Source: Candidatus Bathyarchaeota archaeon (GTDB lineage Archaea; Thermoproteota; Bathyarchaeia; 40CM-2-53-6). Taken from it: DNA of 64,000 bases. The position numbers and the translations under genes were made by a program. Under the pieces are notes generated by a model that ran no database searches, was not told the DNA's origin, and saw only the letters and a list, made by a program, of their open reading frames with translations. The first letter of the stretch is position 1. Each line of letters opens with the position of its first letter. This document shows positions 21,310 to 61,536 of this stretch, in pieces. The stretch is taken from the NCBI GenBank assembly GCA_005888745.1, contig VBBS01000027.1, forward strand, positions 55,045-119,044, read 5' to 3'.

Positions 21310-21477
21310 TTGTCACGCCTGGTTCCGAGATGCTCCTGCGGTGGAGAGCTAGTAATCATAGGTGAGAATAGGAGTGCGGAAGGCTGGCGGACAGGCTTCA
21401 AGCTTCAATGCAAGAAATGCAACAAGCGATGGATCTACACTGGCGGAACCTACCACGCGGACCCAACCTCGGGCTGA
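21310..21477 (+). CDS. small zinc-ribbon protein (candidate, non-ATG start)
   Basis: 55-codon frame from TTG: CSCGG...CKKCNKRW (CxC...CxxC). It ends 10 nt before the SIS gene and was not called in the ORF track. Confidence 0.3.
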   Translation: MSRLVPRCSCGGELVIIGENRSAEGWRTGFKLQCKKCNKRWIYTGGTYHADPTSG

Positions 21478-23100: not shown

Positions 23101-24288
23101 TCAAGTGTATTCGATTGTCTTGAACTCTTTCCGCAGTCTTGTCGCCGATCTGCGTACGCTGCTCGGTTCTTCGCCCTTGTAGATTCTAATGATCAGTTCT
23201 GCAATTCTCTCCATATCTCTCGCTTTCATTCCGCGTCGAGTAGACTCGTTTGTTCCGAGCCGGATTCCATGATCCACTATCATGTTTGCTTCTTCCAGCT
23301 TCTCGGAAAACCGGTTCACATTCTCTTCGCCGTTGATGTCGAGGAAAACCTGGTGCGACTCAGTAAATCCATAGTCTGGGCATCTGACAGGTAGACCTCC
23401 TTCGTGAAGCGCCTCGGCCAAGGCTTTCGCGTTCGCAATTACTTGAGGCGCATATTTCGTTCCTCTTCTCCGAACCTCGTCCAGCGCCCATGTTAGAGCT
23501 GCGATCCTGTTCCAGTGGGCGTTATCGACTAAGCCTGGGAACTGTTGGTCCTTGACCCGCGTTTTCAGTCGGGCCGTTCCGAGGATTATTCCTCCTTGAG
23601 GCCCGAAGAAGCTCTTGTGAGTAGAGCCTAGCATGAGGTCCGCTCCCTCCTTCAGGGGACGCTGGAACTCGCCGCCTCCGATCAGGCCCAAGACATGGGA
23701 AGCGTCGAAGGCAACTTGAGACTCAGCTGCTCGGCAGGTCTCGGACAATTCCTTGACGGGGTGAGGGAAGAGGAAATAGGACTGGCCAAAGACTACGAGA
23801 GATGGTTTTTCGTCCTCAATTAGCGTCTTGGCCTTTTCTACGTCAATATTCATTCGTTCAGAATCGTATGGGAAAAAGAGATTTTTCACATTGACGAACG
23901 GGGGATAGCCACGGTTCCCAAGTCCATCATACCCACCGTTCGAAGGATTGACGGTGAGGATCGAGCCTCCGGGCTTCGTCAGGGTGGATACCATTATCGT
24001 GTCGGCAATGTGCCCGGAGAGTGGTCGGAGGCTTGCCCAGTCAGATCCGAAGACCTCGCACGCTAGCTTCTCTCCCAGGCTCTCAAGCTCGTCGATGAAA
24101 CGTGTCCCCTTGTAGAACCCATCCCAAGCAGTATAACGATGGCCCATATCGCCAGAGAGAAGTTGGCGAACAGTGTGACTGGTTACGTTCTCAGATGGGA
24201 TGAGGTTGAGGCATTCTTCTGCACGCCAGCGTTGATGCTTGTCAACGATCTTTCTGATCTCGGACGCGTAGGACGTTGTGGTCGACAT
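23101..24288 (-). CDS. glyA: serine hydroxymethyltransferase
   Basis: PLP-Lys region (GSTHKSFFGPQGG). The ORF track extends to 24342, but that would overlap rps11. An internal Met (MSTTTSYASEIRK...) fits SHMT N-termini. Confidence 0.9.
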   Translation of the reverse strand: MSTTTSYASEIRKIVDKHQRWRAEECLNLIPSENVTSHTVRQLLSGDMGHRYTAWDGFYKGTRFIDELESLGEKLACEVFGSDWASLRPLSGHIADTIMVSTLTKPGGSILTVNPSNGGYDGLGNRGYPPFVNVKNLFFPYDSERMNIDVEKAKTLIEDEKPSLVVFGQSYFLFPHPVKELSETCRAAESQVAFDASHVLGLIGGGEFQRPLKEGADLMLGSTHKSFFGPQGGIILGTARLKTRVKDQQFPGLVDNAHWNRIAALTWALDEVRRRGTKYAPQVIANAKALAEALHEGGLPVRCPDYGFTESHQVFLDINGEENVNRFSEKLEEANMIVDHGIRLGTNESTRRGMKARDMERIAELIIRIYKGEEPSSVRRSATRLRKEFKTIEYT

Positions 24289-24298
24289 TAGTTGAGAA

Positions 24299-24706
24299 CT
24301 AGACTCTTCGACCGCGTCGACCGCCGGGTCTTCGGGTCCCATCGTGAGGGACTGGTGTCACGTCTTCTATTCGGCCGATTCTGAAACCGTGACGGGCAAG
24401 CATTCTGATGGCTGCTTGCGCCCCCGGACCAGGAGTCCTGGCACCGTGTCCACCCGGAGCTCGTACTCGAATGTGAAGGGAGGTAATTCCCTTGTCCTTT
24501 GCGGTCTTGGCGGCGGCCGCAGCGGCCTGCATCGCGGCGTATGGTGTCCCCTGGAGTCTGTCGGCTTTGACGTGTTGCCCGCCGGCGCTTCGAGATATTG
24601 TCTCGGCGCCTGTGAGGTCTGTTATGTGGACCATGGTGTTGTTGAAGGATGAGTAGATGTGGGCTATTCCCCATCTGTCCGCCGGTGCTTTCGTCTTCTC
24701 CGCCAT
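24299..24706 (-). CDS. rps11: 30S ribosomal protein S11
   Basis: [18 protein letters not shown]...[13 protein letters not shown] is diagnostic of uS11. Confidence 0.9.
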
Positions 24707-24747
24707 GCAGAATTACCTGATAGATTGCGGCTTGACCCTCACGCGAA

Positions 24748-38236: not shown

Positions 38237-38503
38237 CTACCACATAGATCGCCTGGGAGATTCACTTCCGTGCTTCCGGTACGAGTCAAGCATCGCCCTA
38301 AGTGTTCCTGCCTTGCCAACATCACTGAATCCGATCCTATCACAGAATCGGAGCAAGTTGTCCCTGCCAAGGATGGCTAACTTCCAACTTGTAATCGTGC
38401 TCCTTCGAACGCCAGCCTTGGTGTCCAAGTACAACTTGGAGTCGATGCCCATTTCGGTGAGCATCCCGCCGATGTTTTCTAGGAGCATACTATTTGTGTC
38501 CAT
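38237..38503 (-). pseudogene. LAGLIDADG homing-endonuclease C-terminal remnant
   Basis: SWKLAILGRDNLLRFCDRIGFSDVGKAGTLRAML resembles the region downstream of the second LAGLIDADG motif of DOD endonucleases. No motif of its own. Confidence 0.35.
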
Positions 38504-38539
38504 GATGCTTTTCTCGTTCTTTCGGAATGGGTACGGGTC

Positions 38540-47985: not shown

Positions 47986-48077
47986 AACAACAACAGTCTA
48001 GCCCGGTTCCATCTGACATATTCCTCGGAAAACGTTCTTCTAATCAGACCCGTCAGTTCTAGGACAGGAGCGGGGAA

Positions 48078-49235
48078 GTCTTAGGCCGCATCGGAATCGT
48101 TGGAGTTGGACATTCAAAGTTCGGAAAAAGGAGCGACGCCTCCCTCCGAGAGCTAGCATTCGAAGCGTACAGTTCCGCCCTAGATGACGCCGACATCGAC
48201 TCTTCAAAAATAGACGGTTCAATAGTTTGCTCCGCCACTCACTACGACAAGCAACGATCGCCTGCAGGTGTTGTTGCGGAATATCTCGGACTCAATCCCC
48301 AACCAACATTCAACGTTGAGGCAGCCTGCGCCTCCAGCGCTGTTGGCCTTCGGACCGCGTGGGCGCTTGTCTCATCAAAACTTCATGATGTGGTGGCCGT
48401 TGTGGGGGTGCAGAAGATGACCGAACTCTCCTCGGAGGAGATCCAGGAGCTCATGGGCAGAGCAGGGGACGTCATGTGGGAGTCTCCCTTCGGAACAACA
48501 ATGCCCGCATACTACGCCTCCTATGCTAACGCCCACATGGCCAAGTACGGAACTACAGAGGAACAAATGGCGCTCGTGTCGGTGAAGAACCGAAAATACG
48601 GATCCAAGAATCCTAACGCCATGTTTCAAAAACCCATCCAATTGGAAGAGGTCCTAAAATCGCGAATGGTATCTTATCCTCTAAAACTATACGATTGCTG
48701 CGCCAATGCTGACGGGGCGGCATGTCTGCTCATTACTAGTGCCGAAAAAGCAAAGAAAATTTCTGATAGACCCGTATGGATCTCCGGGCTTGGCCTGGCT
48801 TCGAGTCCCATGTCGCTTGCTGGAAGAAAAGGTCCATTGACGAGTTTCGATGCCACAAGAAATGCGGCGAGAACGGCATACGAAATGGCCAATATCAAAC
48901 CACACGACGTACATGTGGCGGAGGTTCATGACTCTTTCTCGGTAACAGAAATCATCAATTATGAAGACCTCGGATTCGCACGACCTGGAAGGGGTGCTAA
49001 GCTTCTGGAAAACCAAGGCACGGAGCTCGGCGGGAGAATCCCCGTCAACATCGACGGAGGCTTGATTTCCAAAGGCCATCCAGTCGGAGCCACAGGCGCG
49101 TCCCAGATCTTCGCATTGGTCAAACAACTACGGGGGGAAGCGGGTAGCGTTCAGGTCGACGGCGCTAAGATTGGTCTCGCACAGAACATAGGGGGAATAG
49201 GAATGTACTGCTCCGTTACGATCTTGCGCTCATGA
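48078..49235 (+). CDS. thiolase (SCP-x-type acetyl-CoA C-acyltransferase)
   Basis: Thiolase N-terminal domain (GRIGIVGVGHSKFG...AACASSAVGL active Cys) is in frame with the called ORF 48390..49235. The frame opens at 48063, and there is no ATG, GTG or TTG before 48390. Start position uncertain. Confidence 0.75.
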   Translation, partial: VLGRIGIVGVGHSKFGKRSDASLRELAFEAYSSALDDADIDSSKIDGSIVCSATHYDKQRSPAGVVAEYLGLNPQPTFNVEAACASSAVGLRTAWALVSSKLHDVVAVVGVQKMTELSSEEIQELMGRAGDVMWESPFGTTMPAYYASYANAHMAKYGTTEEQMALVSVKNRKYGSKNPNAMFQKPIQLEEVLKSRMVSYPLKLYDCCANADGAACLLITSAEKAKKISDRPVWISGLGLASSPMSLAGRKGPLTSFDATRNAARTAYEMANIKPHDVHVAEVHDSFSVTEIINYEDLGFARPGRGAKLLENQGTELGGRIPVNIDGGLISKGHPVGATGASQIFALVKQLRGEAGSVQVDGAKIGLAQNIGGIGMYCSVTILRS

Positions 49236-49281
49236 GTACATTCTCCAAGCTCTATGACGAAAAGCGAGGGCGAATCTAGGA

Positions 49282-50208
49282 TTGCAGGTGGACATTCAAG
49301 AGTTGACCCCCATTCAAAGCTTCGGCAGAAGAATTCGAGCCTATGATAAAGCCACACGCCTCGCAAAGGAAGGTCGCCCTGTCACTGAAATCTCGAAAGA
49401 GACGGGAACGCCTGACGCTACCATCAGGGGATGGCTCGTAAACGGTCGAAAACCTTGGACCCGCTGCGAACTCTTCAAACCAACGTACTCTGATCAATTA
49501 ACATATGTTATCGGTGTTTACATGGGAGACGGCTCGATTTCCCGATGGAGAAATCGTTTTTTACTGCGATTAGATGTCAAAGACAAAGAATTCGCCGATA
49601 AGTTTTCTTCAACATGCGCACATGTTCTGGGTAGGAAACCATATTCTGTGAGGCATGTCAGGGATAGGGACACATACGAGACTATCATTTCAAACGCGTC
49701 TTTCTGCAAGTTCCTCAACCGAGGCCTCACCCACCTGGATCGGTATGTACGGGAGCATCCCTCTGGCTTTGTTAGAGGTTTAGCTGATAGCGATGAGTGC
49801 CCCACTGTGACAACAACAAAAAAGCGGGGCAAACCCTGGTTCTTCGTCCAAGTTGTAGTAGCAACATCCAAGAGCATACGCTTACTGAGCTATACTCGGA
49901 CGATCCTGAGGGAATGCCTCGGACTCAAAGCGACGCTAGTGTACAAAGGCAAGCCAAGACCCAGTGTGTTCAAGAACAAGTTGCTCCGTTCAAGAAAGAG
50001 GGTCTTTGACCTTAGGATATCGCGCTTTGGTGACGTGAAACGATTCTCCCGGGTTGTTGGTTTCGAATTGGCTCGGAAACAAGAGAAGCTTGCCGCTGCT
50101 ATCTTCGTCCGTGAAGGATTTGGTTCTGGTCAGGATGCGGTGAAAGAGTGGACCCGTCGCTGGGAGCATGGCACCACTGAGTGGATTCTCAAGAAAGGAG
50201 TGGACTAG
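49282..50208 (+). CDS. free-standing LAGLIDADG homing endonuclease with N-terminal HTH
   Basis: Motif 1 YVIGVYMGDGSI and motif 2 FVRGLADSDECP. TTG start. Lies between the thiolase and DUF35 genes. Confidence 0.8.
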   Translation: MQVDIQELTPIQSFGRRIRAYDKATRLAKEGRPVTEISKETGTPDATIRGWLVNGRKPWTRCELFKPTYSDQLTYVIGVYMGDGSISRWRNRFLLRLDVKDKEFADKFSSTCAHVLGRKPYSVRHVRDRDTYETIISNASFCKFLNRGLTHLDRYVREHPSGFVRGLADSDECPTVTTTKKRGKPWFFVQVVVATSKSIRLLSYTRTILRECLGLKATLVYKGKPRPSVFKNKLLRSRKRVFDLRISRFGDVKRFSRVVGFELARKQEKLAAAIFVREGFGSGQDAVKEWTRRWEHGTTEWILKKGVD

Positions 50209-53758: not shown

Positions 53759-54336
53759 CTAAGGCAAGCTAAACGTCGAAAGCTACTATTTTCCAACAGG
53801 ACCGTTCAGGCGTATGAATGGGAATTGTAACCTATCCATCCATCAAGGAGTGACCGAGCTCGTGAGGCAGCGAGAAAGCGCCCCCGCAGAACGTCGAATA
53901 AGTCAATAATGCTGAAGTGTGTCGCAAGAGGGCACTGCGAAAGGCTCGGACTGGGAACTTCGACTAGTCTAGCTGGCCTTCAAAATGGCTCGTTTCGACC
54001 CTTAGACGGAAATGAAGCTCCAGCAGATTCATCAACGTCGCAATCTCGTCGAGGTCTTCGGCATTGTCCATCCGCCTGAGGGGTTTCCCCTTTCAAGCCA
54101 CCGACGCATACGATTTCCAATCAGCTGCCGCTAGCACAGGGATTATGGTTCTGCTTAGTTTTGGTTGGATAGTTGTTGTTGGCTTGTTGACTTAGCTTGC
54201 CTCCATCGTCATCAGGGAGAGTGACCTAACCCCTCTCAATCCGACGAAGAGTTAACAGTGCCTCATTTTCTCATGCATTGTTCTCTACCAACACGAAATT
54301 ACGTGAACGGAAGACAGAAAAAAGGAGATGATCGAA

Positions 54337-55643: not shown

Positions 55644-56051
55644 TTGTGGCAGGCGTATGACAAGTCAGCTTTGGAACTTGGAGATCTCGAGGCAGCTGTC
55701 CTCGGGACAGTTGTTCGGCTTGGCAACGCTTCTGCCCGCCAAGTCGCTCAGGACCTGCATGCTACCCGTGGACTCGCATACACTACAATCAGTACAACGC
55801 TGGATCGTCTTTACAGGAAGGGGATCTTGGCCCGTGATGAGGCTGTTGGCAGAGGAGGGTCCAGATACGTGTATCGCCTTCACTCCGAGGACAAGGTCAA
55901 GGGTCGAGTCGTGAAAGGATTCGTTGACAGGTTGCTCACAGCCTTTGGACCCAGCATTATCTCGACGTTGCATGACTACATGGATGAGATTCCAAAGGAG
56001 GACCTGAAGAAGCTGGAAGAAAGAGTTCGTAGGGAGTCCGGGCAACGATAA
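55644..56051 (+). CDS. BlaI/MecI/CopY-family winged-helix repressor
   Basis: ARQVAQDL...LAYTTISTTLDRLYRKGILAR matches the penicillinase-repressor family pattern. TTG start. Confidence 0.7.
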   Translation: MWQAYDKSALELGDLEAAVLGTVVRLGNASARQVAQDLHATRGLAYTTISTTLDRLYRKGILARDEAVGRGGSRYVYRLHSEDKVKGRVVKGFVDRLLTAFGPSIISTLHDYMDEIPKEDLKKLEERVRRESGQR

Positions 56052-56956
56052 GCCTGGAACTGTACTCGCTCTACTTCCTTTCGACAGCTACCCTGGGAAT
56101 TGTAGCAACAGTTCTGATAGTCCAAATTGCTTCCTATATCGCCTACCGATCAAGTGTGGGAAATCCCTCTCGCAGATCCAGCCTCCTATATCCGATACTA
56201 TCCTCTTCTGTTTTCTTCTGGTCGTTTCTTGGAACTAGCCTTGTAGTGTGCACGCTCTTCCTCAATATGTACGAGTGGCAATCACAACGAGTGATAAGAC
56301 TCGTGTTTGGAAGTTCGCTGGTAGCATCTATCGGAATCTCCTCTCTCATGTCCCTTATTGCTCGAAGATACGCGTTCCCTAGAATGCTTGGGGGAATGAT
56401 CGCAGGAACATTCTCGAGCTCTAGACTGAGCGAAACATGTGCGGAGCTATGCAACAAGATGGGTATCAAAGGAGTCGACCTTAGAGAAGCTAGGGTGGGA
56501 AACGCGTTTTCTTTGGACAATGGGAGTTGGAAGGTCGTTGCCGTATCTCCCGAGCTGGTGAGTTCCATGTCACCGGCGGAAGTCGAGGCGGTCATTGCTC
56601 ACGAGATCTCTCACTTGAAGAACAAGGATTCTCGAGAGAAGGGACTTGCAAGGCTGGCTAAACTGGCCTTCGTTTTTGACCCCGTGCTGCATCTTGTTGA
56701 GGCTGCGGTCCACAGAGAACGTGAACTCCTCGCCGACCAGTTGTCAGTGGAATACACTCAGAAGCCGTTGGCACTCGCATCAGCTTTGCTGAAGGTTCAT
56801 TCAGCCTTCCACGCCCCATTGCCTGGGCCTGGAGCCGGATTGTTTGTAGGTCGAAAGACAAGAGGTCTCTTGAGCAGGTATCCCGACCTTGATCGAAGAG
56901 TCCAGCTGCTAATTGACATGGACCGAGAGATGAAGACTCAGACGATCCCCGCCTGA
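56045..56956 (+). CDS. M48/M56-family zinc metallopeptidase (HtpX/BlaR1-like), membrane
   Basis: HEISH (HExxH) and downstream ELLAD (ExxAD) zinc-ligand motifs. The N-terminal TM helix (ISLELYSLYFLSTATLGIVATVLIVQIASYIAY) lies upstream of the called GTG 56156, in frame back to ACG 56045, which overlaps the blaI-like stop (ACGATAA). Confidence 0.7.
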   Translation, partial: TISLELYSLYFLSTATLGIVATVLIVQIASYIAYRSSVGNPSRRSSLLYPILSSSVFFWSFLGTSLVVCTLFLNMYEWQSQRVIRLVFGSSLVASIGISSLMSLIARRYAFPRMLGGMIAGTFSSSRLSETCAELCNKMGIKGVDLREARVGNAFSLDNGSWKVVAVSPELVSSMSPAEVEAVIAHEISHLKNKDSREKGLARLAKLAFVFDPVLHLVEAAVHRERELLADQLSVEYTQKPLALASALLKVHSAFHAPLPGPGAGLFVGRKTRGLLSRYPDLDRRVQLLIDMDREMKTQTIPA

Positions 56957-57025
56957 AGGAACGCTCTTTTATAGCCTCACCAGGTTTGGATTGCGGACTT
57001 GACAGTTCAAATTCAGAAATACAAA

Positions 57026-58431
57026 ATGCTGATCGGGGGAGAGTGGAAGGACAGCGCAAATGGCGCTGTTTCATCAGTTCTTGATCCTTCAAACAACGTA
57101 CAAGACAGGACGCGAAAGCTGCAGTCGTGAGTGCGAAGATCGCGCTGGAGTCGGCCGGCTGGGTCGACATTGATCCCAGCAAGAGAGGGCGTCTCCTAAC
57201 TAAGCTCACAACTCTGGTCAGGGAGAATTCAGAGCAGCTGGCAAAGCTTGAAACCATGAGTGAGGGGAAGACTCTCCGAGAGTCTAAGGGTGATGTTGCC
57301 TGGGCGGCCAGGGCGTTCGAGTACTGGGCAGGACTGGCGGACAAGGTTGAAGGAGAAACCATACCTGTTCCGCCGAGACGTCTGAACTACACTCTTCGTG
57401 AGCCGCTAGGCGTAACGGTCCATATTGTTCCTTGGAATTATCCGATCGCGCTTGCTGCTAGAAGTTTGGCACCGGCAATTGCAGCAGGGAATACTGTTGT
57501 CGTGAAACCGTCTGAGATTACTCCTCTTACAGCGATTATGCTGGGAGATCTAGCGCTTAAGGCCGGCATCCCCAAAGGTGTTATCAACGTTGTAACTGGA
57601 TCAGGTGCTGAAGTAGGCGAAGCACTTGTGTCGGACCCGCGAGTGGACGGGATAGTTTTCACAGGGTCCGCTGAGACAGGAACGCAGGTGATGGAGTCAG
57701 CCGCGAAAAATGTTACAAGGGTACTTCTGGAGTTAGGCGGTAAGAACCCGCATATTGTCTTCCCTGACGCCGACTTGGCGAAGGCCGCTAAGAGCGTGAA
57801 GGAAGGCATTTTCACCAATGCTGGACAAATGTGCTGGGCCGGATCTAGGGCATTCATTCACGAGAGCATATACGATGATTTCGTAAAGGACCTCGTCGCC
57901 AAGACCCGAGCGATAAAGGTCGGGCCTGGAAGAGATGATACCAGCGAGATGGGACCCTTAGCCTCAAAGGCTCGGCAAGACGTGGTTCTCGGGTTTGTCA
58001 AGGACGGCCTCGAAGAAGGGGCAAGTCTTCTCTGCGGGGGGAAGAAACCATCTGACCCAGGACTGCAGAAGGGAAATTTCGTCGAGCCCACCATTTTCGA
58101 GAACGTCAACGGGAAGATGAAAATCGGGTGCGACGAGATTTTCGGACCTGTTCTGGGCCTTACCCAGTTCAAGACTCTCGACGAGGTTGTTGCTATGGCC
58201 AATGAGACAGATTATGGACTATACGGGGGAGTCTGGACGAGCAATTTGAAAGTCGCTCATGAACTCGCTGTTCGTCTCCAGGTCGGTGGACTAGCCGTGA
58301 ACGAGTATTTGGTGACCTTTCCGCAGACCCCGTTCGGCGGCTACAAGGACAGCGGAATAGGACATGAAAACGGCATACGCTCGTTAGAATTCTACACACG
58401 AACCAAGAATGTCTCGATAAACCTTTCCTAG
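57026..58431 (+). CDS. aldehyde dehydrogenase, interrupted by a -1 frame change near 57085-57127
   Basis: Main body 57127..58431 (catalytic Cys region AGQMCWAGSR, ELGGKNP). The conserved N-terminus MLIGGEWKDSANGAVSSVLDPSNN is encoded from ATG 57026 in the frame offset by +1 and stops at 57130. The body frame opens at 57085. Confidence 0.75.
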
Positions 58432-58767: not shown

Positions 58768-59694
58768 CTAGGTAAGCTCGTCCAGCAACGGCGTAATATC
58801 ACGGTTGTAAATATCCTGCTCGACAAAGGGCTTTTCTTTCAGGGCGGGCATTCGAAGAGCCAGCTGGTCCTCGAAGGTAGGAACCTCCATCTTGAAGAAA
58901 ACCCCGATCGGTATCTTGTCGCCCCACTCGAAAGACTTCACCAGGGCATTTCCCTTCTTTGTGTTAACCTCGTCCGTCGTGGGATCGGCAACCGTACCAT
59001 TGTACCCTGAATCCTCCAGCTTGTAGAGCCTCGGTGCCTTGACCGGAAGATCTTCGCCACCATACCATTCTTTCGTGTTGATGTCGTTATAGGTCGGGCA
59101 TGTTTGCAGAACATCTACGAACGCGCTTCCCCGATGTTCTATTGCCGCTCGAAGGGTTTGCTTCAAGTGGCGAACGTCAAGAGCATAACTCCGCGCAACG
59201 AACGTATAGCCCGAAGCGACTGCCATAGCGATCGGATTCACACGCTCAATGATCGCGGGGGCAGGCATCGATTTCGTTTTCACACCCTTCGGCAGGGTCG
59301 GAGATGCCTGACCTTTTGTCAAGCCGTAGACTCCATTATCGTAGAGCACGTATGTGAAATCCAGGTTCCTTCGACCAGTATTGACGAAGTGGCCTGCTCC
59401 TATTCCCAGTCCGTCTCCGTCGCCACCAACAGCGACAACGGTCAGTCCTGGGTTAGAAAGACGGGCACCAGTAGCGATTGGAAGGACACGGCCATGGAGA
59501 GTATGGAACCCGTACGCGTTAACAAAATGAGGTGTCTTGCCTGAGCATCCGATTCCCGAGAAGATCGCGACCCTGTGGGGTTCAAGCTGCATTTCTAGAA
59601 GGGTCATCTGAATCGCGTTGACGATTCCGAAGTCTCCGCAACCAGGGCACCAGTCGTTGTGAACCTGTGTCCGGTAGGTCTTTAGCTCAAGCAT
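58768..59694 (-). CDS. korB: 2-oxoacid:ferredoxin oxidoreductase beta subunit (TPP-binding)
   Basis: CPGCGDFGI motif and TPP-binding GDG region. Confidence 0.9.
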   Translation of the reverse strand: MLELKTYRTQVHNDWCPGCGDFGIVNAIQMTLLEMQLEPHRVAIFSGIGCSGKTPHFVNAYGFHTLHGRVLPIATGARLSNPGLTVVAVGGDGDGLGIGAGHFVNTGRRNLDFTYVLYDNGVYGLTKGQASPTLPKGVKTKSMPAPAIIERVNPIAMAVASGYTFVARSYALDVRHLKQTLRAAIEHRGSAFVDVLQTCPTYNDINTKEWYGGEDLPVKAPRLYKLEDSGYNGTVADPTTDEVNTKKGNALVKSFEWGDKIPIGVFFKMEVPTFEDQLALRMPALKEKPFVEQDIYNRDITPLLDELT

Positions 59695-61536
59695 GAGATA
59701 CGGTTACCTCTTTGATTCCGTTCTTTATTATGTCTTTGACACCCTCGTAGATTTCGTTCTGGGAAAACGGTCTTCCGTCGAACTTTACAATAGTATTGTC
59801 CATTGCAATACCGGTTTTCTCACGGATCAACCCTGCCATCTGTGCGGAGTAATTGTTTTCGATCGCGATCTTCCGCCGGGCCGAACCAAGTGCCTGCTGA
59901 ACGAAGCTTGTTGGGAACGGGCTAACGTATCGCACCTGTAGAAAGTTTGTTTCTATCCCGTCGCTCTTGAGGTCTTCCATGCCGTCGAGTATCGCTCCCT
60001 TCGATGACCCCCAGCCAACGAGTGTAATCAGAGCCGATGTTGGTCCGTGCAAGGTTGCCTTCTTTGAGTCCGGTATTACTTGTCCAGCAAGCTCGATCTT
60101 TCTCATTCTCTTCCTCATCATCTTGATCCGGATATCCGGCGCCTCCGTGATATGACCATACTCGTCATGCTCATCTCCAGTTGTCCAGAAGATCCCCCCT
60201 TTCTGACCAGGAATTGCTCGGGGGGAAATTCCCAGTTCTGTCCAACGGTAGCGTCGATGCTTATGGCGAGATCTGATTCTCGAACCAAGTCTCCCCGATC
60301 GACCTTCAGGTTGTCGCCGTTGAAAGGAGGAATATCTTGGTAGGTGCTCGCCAGGAACTTGTCGGTCAGAAGTATGACGGGCACTTGGTAGCGTTCCGCG
60401 TAGTTGAACGCGTCGAACGTGTCGTAGTAAGTTTCGACCACATCTCCGGGTGCAATAATTATCCGAGGAAATTCTCCATGGGCAGCGTGAAGAGCAAATC
60501 TTAGGTCTGCTTGCTCCGTCCGAGTCGGCAGCCCAGTTGCAGGACCTGCCCGCTGATATAGCACGACAACTGGTCCAGGGGCTTCAGTTATCCCGGCCCA
60601 CCCCAAGCCTTCGGCCATAAGAGAAAAGCCCGGTCCAGATGTAGAGGTAGAAGATCTGAGACCAGCGTGAGCCGCACCGGTGGCCATGTTGATCGCGGAA
60701 ATCTCGTCCTCTGCTTGTACGACTATCATATTGTAGTCCTTCTGGTGGGACTCCAAGTACTCGCTCTCGTCCGTTGCTGGTGTAATGGGATAGTAGGTTT
60801 GGAATCCACATCCGGCCTTGAGTTTCGCGATAGCCACGGCTTGTACACCTCTGATCATCATTCGCTTTCCAGACAGCGGTTGCTTTCGCAGCTTTATCGG
60901 AAACGCATCTTCGCCGAAACCCGCCTTTGCATAATCGTATCCGCGTTTCGCGGCGCTGACGTTTAGGTCGCCGAGAGCTGCCTTGCGTCCGGTGAACCCT
61001 TCTCTAATGGCCTCGGTTGCGAGGTCAAAGTCGTAATCGGCGAGGCCAAGGGAAGCCCCTAGAGCAATCGTGTTGACCATAACCTGGTACTTGCTCAGTT
61101 CCTTGTCCTTTCCAAACTCCTTCAGCGCCTCGACAAGGAGATCCATGTAGGGGATCGGAAAGAGTTTGATATCATCACGCCCGAAAGAGTCAGGTGACAG
61201 GTTCAAGCTGCGATCGTAGATTATTCCACCTCCAGGGCTGACCTCGTGTCTATGCCCTCGATGGGTAGGACGAAGCTTGTTCATGTCGCCGAAGATTGTT
61301 TCCCGGTCGAGGGCTACGAGTAAGTCTACCCAGTCCACGTGGGATCTGGGCGCCTTTGACTCTACTCTGAGCCTGTAGTAGCTATGTTCGCCCTTGATGT
61401 TGGAGTGATACTCGATGTTGGCAAATATGTGAAGTCCTCCACGAATGCATGCTTTTGCAAAGTTCTCTGCAACCGAGTTGATCCCGCTGCCTTGAGGACC
61501 GCCTATCATCCAGGTGAAACTGTTGGTTACTGTCAA
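59687..61536 (-). CDS. korA: 2-oxoacid:ferredoxin oxidoreductase fused gamma-alpha subunit, split by a -1 frame change near 60250-60280
   Basis: Called as 60118..61536 (472 aa) plus 59687..60121 (144 aa). The downstream frame, extended upstream, reads RYRWTELGISPRAIPGQKGGIFWTTGDEHDEYGHITEAPDIRIKMMRKRMRKIE, the conserved alpha-subunit segment. The upstream ORF's last ~45 aa are out-of-frame junk. Confidence 0.8.

Follow-up and report, generated by a model that had tools for sequence, protein, structure and literature searches.

The window, that is, the whole stretch of 64,000 nucleotides analyzed here, contains a gene for an aldehyde dehydrogenase (ALDH) that is divided between two reading frames and, close by on the opposite strand, a korA gene that is divided as well. 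The ALDH gene follows a BlaI-like/M48-M56 peptidase pair and converges with korAB, an arrangement common to all close relatives examined. The pair directly upstream of ALDH (55644-56956, + strand) consists of a BlaI/MecI-type repressor (Penicillinase_R) and a BlaR1-like M48/M56 peptidase, and the order of this pair and ALDH is kept in the archaeal relatives L002, L083, and L095. The features of the locus are as follows.

57026-57098, + strand: ALDH 5' segment, codons 1-24 (MLIGGEWKDSANGAVSSVLDPSNN) plus the first base, G, of a Glu codon
57082-57084, + strand: TGA that closes the ALDH body frame upstream and, with the TGA at 57128-57130, delimits the frame overlap
57098-57099, + strand: ALDH junction, where alignments with 24 orthologous loci and with the contigs L083, L084, and L085 place a 25-column gap found in the window alone
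57099-58431, + strand: remainder of ALDH, shifted by one frame (T-R-Q-D-A-K-A-A-V ... I-N-L-S-stop) and otherwise intact
57128-57130, + strand: TGA that ends the 34-codon frame
58768-59694, - strand: korB (beta subunit), intact, whose exact protein served as a handle for same-strain contigs
59687-61536, - strand: korA (2-oxoacid:ferredoxin oxidoreductase alpha subunit), split into ORFs 60118-61536 (472 aa) and 59687-60121 (144 aa)
60257-60258, - strand: korA junction, where 7 nt are missing (CCGACTA on the gene strand, equivalently ACCGACT)

The first of the two ALDH frames is a 34-codon frame (MLIGGEWKDSANGAVSSVLDPSNNVQDRTRKLQS) that runs on the + strand from ATG 57026-57028 to TGA 57128-57130. 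The frame that encodes the body of the enzyme lies one position behind it (57127 mod 3 = 1 vs 57026 mod 3 = 2). A TGA at 57082-57084 closes this body frame upstream, and it then stays open from 57085 as far as the stop at 58429-58431; the two frames overlap by 43 nt (57085-57127). These frames and their limits had been reported in a preliminary description made from the sequence, every coordinate of which proved exact. A TTG at 56999, upstream of ATG 57026, is an alternative start and is used in the 485-aa gene calls. In a Pfam search, the body frame belongs to the ALDH superfamily (Aldedh, PF00171; 553.6 bits vs a cut-off of 23, E-value 3.9e-166), with positions 24-461 of the 461-position profile corresponding to body-frame residues 3-443. 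Because the match begins at profile position 24, the first ~23 profile positions are absent from the body frame. The remainder of the gene retains PWNYP, ELGGKNP, and GQMCWAGSR, and we take PWNxP, ELGGK, and GQxCxAxxR to be the ALDH motifs of the oxyanion Asn, the general-base Glu, and the catalytic Cys, respectively. This remainder is 93 per cent identical to the protein P0001 and others and is identical to that of L083, and the 5' segment aligns base for base with the N-termini of orthologues and of same-strain contigs. A 234-aa antisense ORF (56658-57362, - strand) also crosses the ALDH junction and, where the sense gene is disrupted, probably gives rise to spurious gene calls.

Between 57098 (G) and 57099 (T), the window is without 25 contiguous nucleotides (AGGTTGTCGCCGAGGTCCCACGAGC, eight codons plus one nucleotide) that comprise the last two bases of a Glu codon, the codons for VVAEVPR, and the first two bases of an Ala codon. 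DNA alignments were made first with two metagenome contigs and then with 24 orthologous loci (~60-94 per cent protein identity; mostly from soil Bathyarchaeota/Bathyarchaeia metagenome-assembled genomes [MAGs]), and all of them place a single 25-column gap at this point. The 25 nt are carried by all 24 orthologous loci, none of which has the frame break; comparison with orthologues had been named in the preliminary description as a way of checking the split. Relatives read ...LDPSNNEVVAEVPRATKQDAKAAV..., where the window has ...LDPSNN in the first frame and TRQDAKAAV... in the second. The N-terminal segment ..NPxxxEVIAxVPxA.. is uninterrupted in L083 and has lost EVVAEVPRA in the window. The lost residues align inside the closest solved ALDH structure (4o5h, which has TVIARVPEA at this place) and inside the Pfam profile, and the closest proteins in a database of 5.8 billion proteins are 476 or 485 aa long, at most 93 per cent identical, and all encoded by single ORFs. 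The junction does fall within the 43-nt interval in which the preliminary description had located the break. Its reading of the break as a -1 change, equivalent to a 1-nt deletion, holds modulo 3 (a loss of 3n + 1 nucleotides) and fails on size, which is 25 contiguous nt rather than 1 nt.

The 31-mer that spans the ALDH junction in the window is TCCTTCAAACAACGTACAAGACAGGACGCGA. Direct inspection of the alignment at the 25-nt junction finds 0 nt of microhomology and no terminal overlap by which a mis-merge could be explained. We rejected a translocation of the 25 nt, since the 25-mer occurs nowhere else in the window even with up to three mismatches allowed. Slippage between direct repeats is not supported either: the intact allele has ACGAG repeats 22 nt apart, but slippage between them gives a different product.

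Near-identical contigs were fetched from ENA, JGI, and Logan assemblies by means of the exact proteins of intact neighbors (KorB, the BlaI-like regulator, an AAA ATPase, a GAPDH-like protein, and a phosphorylase). Between the window and the contig L083/L094 (ENA ERZ27285877, k141_2048935; 32.9 kb), there are 4 SNPs in 10.2 kb and 5 SNPs in 20.8 kb. Neither the 25 nt nor the 7 nt are missing from this contig, and its ALDH is called at 485 aa and its KorA at 609 aa. Both segments are also present in L085, and the 25 nt are present in L084, which is 99.9 per cent identical to the window. Thus, every same-strain contig that reaches the ALDH site (L083/L094, L084, and L085) has the 25 nt, and the contigs that cleanly span the korA site (L083/L094 and L085) carry the 7 nt, L084 having an N gap there. 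When the 25 nt are put back into the window, the resulting protein is 100 per cent identical to the ALDH of L083; when the 7 nt are put back, the product is 100 per cent identical to its KorA. The intact ALDH sequence is recorded twice, in ENA and in JGI. By contrast, exact look-ups returned no record of the deletion-specific products (a 434-aa ALDH body, a 43-aa N-terminal ORF, and a 463-aa KorA), and the ALDH junction was not found in JGI metagenome contigs, whether sought by exact flanks with a variable gap of 0-25 nt or by a wobble-degenerate junction pattern. Among GTDB representative genomes, the best match is L028 (94 per cent amino-acid and ~85 per cent nucleotide identity). The preliminary description had held that a corrected assembly with one extra base restoring a single ORF would make the split an error rather than biology; in substance, such restoring sequence does exist, in independent assemblies rather than in a correction of this one. 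Its interpretation is thus partly supported: the frame discontinuity and its location were right, the size of the lesion and its meaning were not.

The lesion in korA is situated 3.1 kb from that in ALDH and is likewise confined to the window. When the flanks were compared with L028 and L003, the nearest genomes, it proved to be the only other indel in a conserved gene whose length is not a multiple of three. Pfam domains POR, POR_N, and PFOR_II are distributed over the two ORFs, the 472-aa ORF ends in an aberrant C-terminal tail, and past the lesion, the shifted frame encodes a perfectly conserved protein sequence; korA is a single ORF in L028 (618 aa) and in L083 (609 aa). At the junction, the window reads AAGCA|TCGACGC (31-mer GCCATAAGCATCGACGCTACCG), where the true sequence, as found in L083 and L085, is AAGCACCGACTATCGACGC.

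A sister sample, SAMN08902853, covers the locus with two scaffolds, scaffold_26 (L106, L100, and L095) and scaffold_1424 (L084). Scaffold_26 is collinear with the window from 2583 to 57098 (~54.5 kb), with 38 mismatches and a single 1-nt intergenic indel. From ~57066, scaffold_26 (in L095) continues with the ALDH sequence of another strain, which has a variant of the 25 nt, then with unrelated DNA, and then ends. This switch to other-strain ALDH and unrelated GC-rich DNA marks the tail as chimeric. The last ~494 nt of L095 are made up of ~100 nt of the other-strain ALDH N-terminus followed by ~440 nt of the unrelated GC-rich sequence, and a 192-aa gene, antisense to ALDH, is called at this chimeric end. 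The left end of scaffold_1424 (L084) is situated 13 nt left of the ALDH junction, from where the scaffold extends to the right. Its korA site is taken up by a gap of 49 Ns between ..AAGCACCGAC and TCGACGC.., and the right-hand piece of the scaffold starts with TCGACGC, exactly where the window resumes. The true gap is only 2 nt despite the 49 Ns, and the ends that flank it share an imperfect 5-nt terminal similarity (CCGAC vs TCGAC). The window itself contains no Ns. In sum, the lesions are unique to one assembly, and they coincide with contig ends or N gaps of the sister assembly, two signs by which we judged an assembly artifact. The window has the appearance of a piece of the scaffold_26 type that was joined to one of the scaffold_1424 type, with each window-only lesion at a join.

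The other 54 kb of the window are free of indels of this kind. Pfam comparisons identify 20 further overlapping same-strand ORFs as separate, essentially full-length genes, among them an intact 1184-aa SMC gene, and the only frame-breaking indels found lie at the ALDH and korA junctions. Together with the collinearity with scaffold_26, these full-length ORFs indicate that the sequence is not generally indel-prone. General indel noise of the long-read homopolymer type was therefore rejected as an explanation, given one 1-nt intergenic indel in 54.5 kb of collinear sequence and these 20 ORFs.

Several smaller length differences were observed between the window and same-strain sequences. At 24278, the window has 1 nt fewer than same-strain scaffolds, in the intergenic region between the genes for SHMT and ribosomal protein S11, the latter of which is intact at 24299-24712 (- strand). 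At 21358, it has 13 extra nt (ATAGGTGAGAATA) relative to L102. An intergenic segment of 104 nt (54230-54333), bounded in the window by CCTAA and ACTAA and situated between genes for a KaiC-like protein and a surface protein with a CarboxypepD_reg domain, is present in the window, L089, L095, and L096 and absent from the otherwise near-identical L083; the difference reflects either a genuine indel polymorphism or the collapse of this segment in the MEGAHIT-style contig.

Two further kinds of ORF in the window deserve mention. The thiolase frame at 48063-49235 (+ strand) has 390 codons and full Thiolase_N and Thiolase_C domains, with no ATG, GTG, or TTG in its first 109 codons. Because an early standard start is missing, ORF finders and public calls shorten the gene to 272-281 aa. 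The same start pattern is seen in the same-strain contigs L094-L097, and a non-canonical or unrecognized start codon is possible. Free-standing LAGLIDADG-like homing-endonuclease ORFs are located at 49258-50208 (+ strand) and 38237-38539 (- strand) of the window and at 15637-16055 of L095; a LAGLIDADG-like ORF of 308 aa (301 aa in some same-strain contigs) separates the thiolase from its usual DUF35 (zf-ChsH2/OB) partner gene.

We consider it likely that the split ALDH is an artifact of contig joining or gap closure, and it is to this step, not to the DNA, that we would attribute both lesions on the strength of the sequence comparisons. Two contigs or scaffold pieces from one soil Bathyarchaeia population would have been joined at 57098/57099 with the loss of 25 bases, and the scaffold gap in korA would have been closed with the loss of 7 bases, its flanking ends having perhaps been merged as if over their 5-nt terminal similarity. 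Two points count against this reading: de Bruijn contigs normally contain only k-mers of the reads, so that the loss of 25 nt would need a step after assembly (scaffolding, merging, or closing of gaps), and the 25-nt junction has neither terminal overlap nor microhomology. In metagenome scaffolds made with IDBA-UD, errors of local assembly and poorly handled scaffold gaps are documented as frequent, and they put incorrect gene sequences into databases (Chen et al. 2020, PMC7111523). For related soil Bathyarchaeota MAGs, IDBA-UD scaffolds were passed through an automated correction of scaffolding errors (Diamond et al. 2019, PMC6784897), and we infer that the window comes from a pipeline of this IDBA-UD-plus-correction type. 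The locus resembles published metagenome assembly errors (Chen, Anantharaman, Shaiber, Eren & Banfield 2020, Genome Res; PMC7111523) in that a wrong consensus at a join or N gap yields a split gene, and in that the near-identical contigs come from scaffolds akin to those soil-metagenome scaffolds. It differs from them in its 25-nt junction, which has no overlap that explains the join, and in that the error is deduced here from assemblies rather than proven at the level of reads.

The best-surviving alternative is that the deletions are real and very recent, one haplotype having lost 25 nt in ALDH and 7 nt in korA so that both became pseudogenes. We regard this as unlikely. In its favor, the window is free of Ns and otherwise of high quality, the output of short-read graph assemblers is normally limited to k-mers present in the reads, and a bubble between two alleles would also produce breakpoints at both sites in L084 and L095. 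Moreover, ALDH and korAB are neighbors in all relatives examined, which makes a joint decay of the module conceivable. However, neither junction occurs in any other assembly examined, none was found in the JGI metagenomes, and the deletion-specific products are unrecorded. Outside the lesions, both genes are free of further decay and 100 per cent identical to the intact alleles, and two independent out-of-frame losses among ~5 SNPs per 20 kb are improbable without selection for loss. Authentic short-deletion pseudogenes of prokaryotes likewise show an out-of-frame loss in a conserved gene and two ORF fragments, but here the lesion is in no other same-strain assembly, no decay accompanies it, and two lesions lie 3 kb apart on an almost SNP-free background, both at assembly breakpoints. 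On a background of ~2.4e-4 substitutions per site, it is very unlikely that the two frame-breaking deletions arose as independent mutations. It is also quite unlikely, in our estimate, that a natural haplotype with ALDH and korA co-inactivated coexists with the intact one and that this polymorphism fragments assemblies at precisely the two junctions.

A third possibility is an N-terminally truncated enzyme of 434 aa that functions from GTG 57127. The GTG-initiated ORF (57127-58431) does hold the catalytic core (Pfam profile positions 41-461), but it would be short of ~50 N-terminal residues, conserved throughout the 476/485-aa orthologues as well as in solved ALDH structures, no 434-aa protein is on record, and a full-length allele exists in the same strain. 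We consider such an enzyme highly improbable.

Programmed -1 ribosomal frameshifting is known from bacterial dnaX, the transposases of IS elements, and Sulfolobus fucA, and occurs in archaea, for example in the alpha-L-fucosidase of Sulfolobus solfataricus. Frameshifting or another form of recoding at 57085-57127 would join the two ALDH frames into a functional enzyme, and as in known cases, two overlapping frames (here by 43 nt) together encode one protein family. The preliminary description had noted AAACAAC at 57091-57097, which is indeed there and in phase as A AAC AAC, and had seen no canonical XXXYYYZ heptamer; A AAC AAC is not canonical, and no canonical X XXY YYZ heptamer is in phase anywhere across 57026-57130. 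Nor is there a sign of a stable stimulatory structure of the kind expected 5-9 nt downstream, as the 93 nt downstream fold no better than shuffled sequence (MFE -31.1 vs a mean of -28.3 for the shuffles, z = -0.86); of 200 shuffled versions, 31 reach the same or a better fold. The shift is seen in none of the 24 orthologous loci and in no same-strain contig, and an unrelated gene 3 kb away bears the same kind of lesion. The preliminary description had stated that a full-length enzyme requires a -1 change, but the product of a ribosomal -1 shift at 57085-57127 would still be without the conserved EVVAEVPRA, that is, with 8-9 conserved residues missing. With a 25-nt lesion and neither slippery site, structure, nor conservation, programmed frameshifting is effectively excluded.

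If the split is indeed an artifact of joining or gap closure, ALDH would be in the organism a single ORF of 476/485 aa that encodes an ordinary NAD(P)+-dependent aldehyde dehydrogenase; almost certainly, both ALDH and KorA are intact there. Over its whole length, the repaired ALDH aligns with its closest solved structures, those of phenylacetaldehyde dehydrogenase (4o5h) and betaine aldehyde dehydrogenase (2wme), as well as with retinal dehydrogenase structures (E-value ~1e-120). Because it scores below every NCBIfam equivalog cut-off (the best being that of BADH, 526 bits vs 668.6), we describe it as an ALDH without substrate assignment.

For data quality, the consequence is that ALDH and KorA of this assembly would be annotated as pseudogenes or truncated genes, or be mistaken for candidates for recoding. 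Retrieval of same-strain contigs through the exact proteins of neighboring genes, followed by comparison of the junctions, offers a cheap, read-free test of such split-gene calls. If the deletions were real after all, they would provide a small example, of modest interest, of within-population gene inactivation in uncultured soil archaea, in which a conserved ALDH/2-oxoacid:ferredoxin oxidoreductase module would have been co-inactivated.
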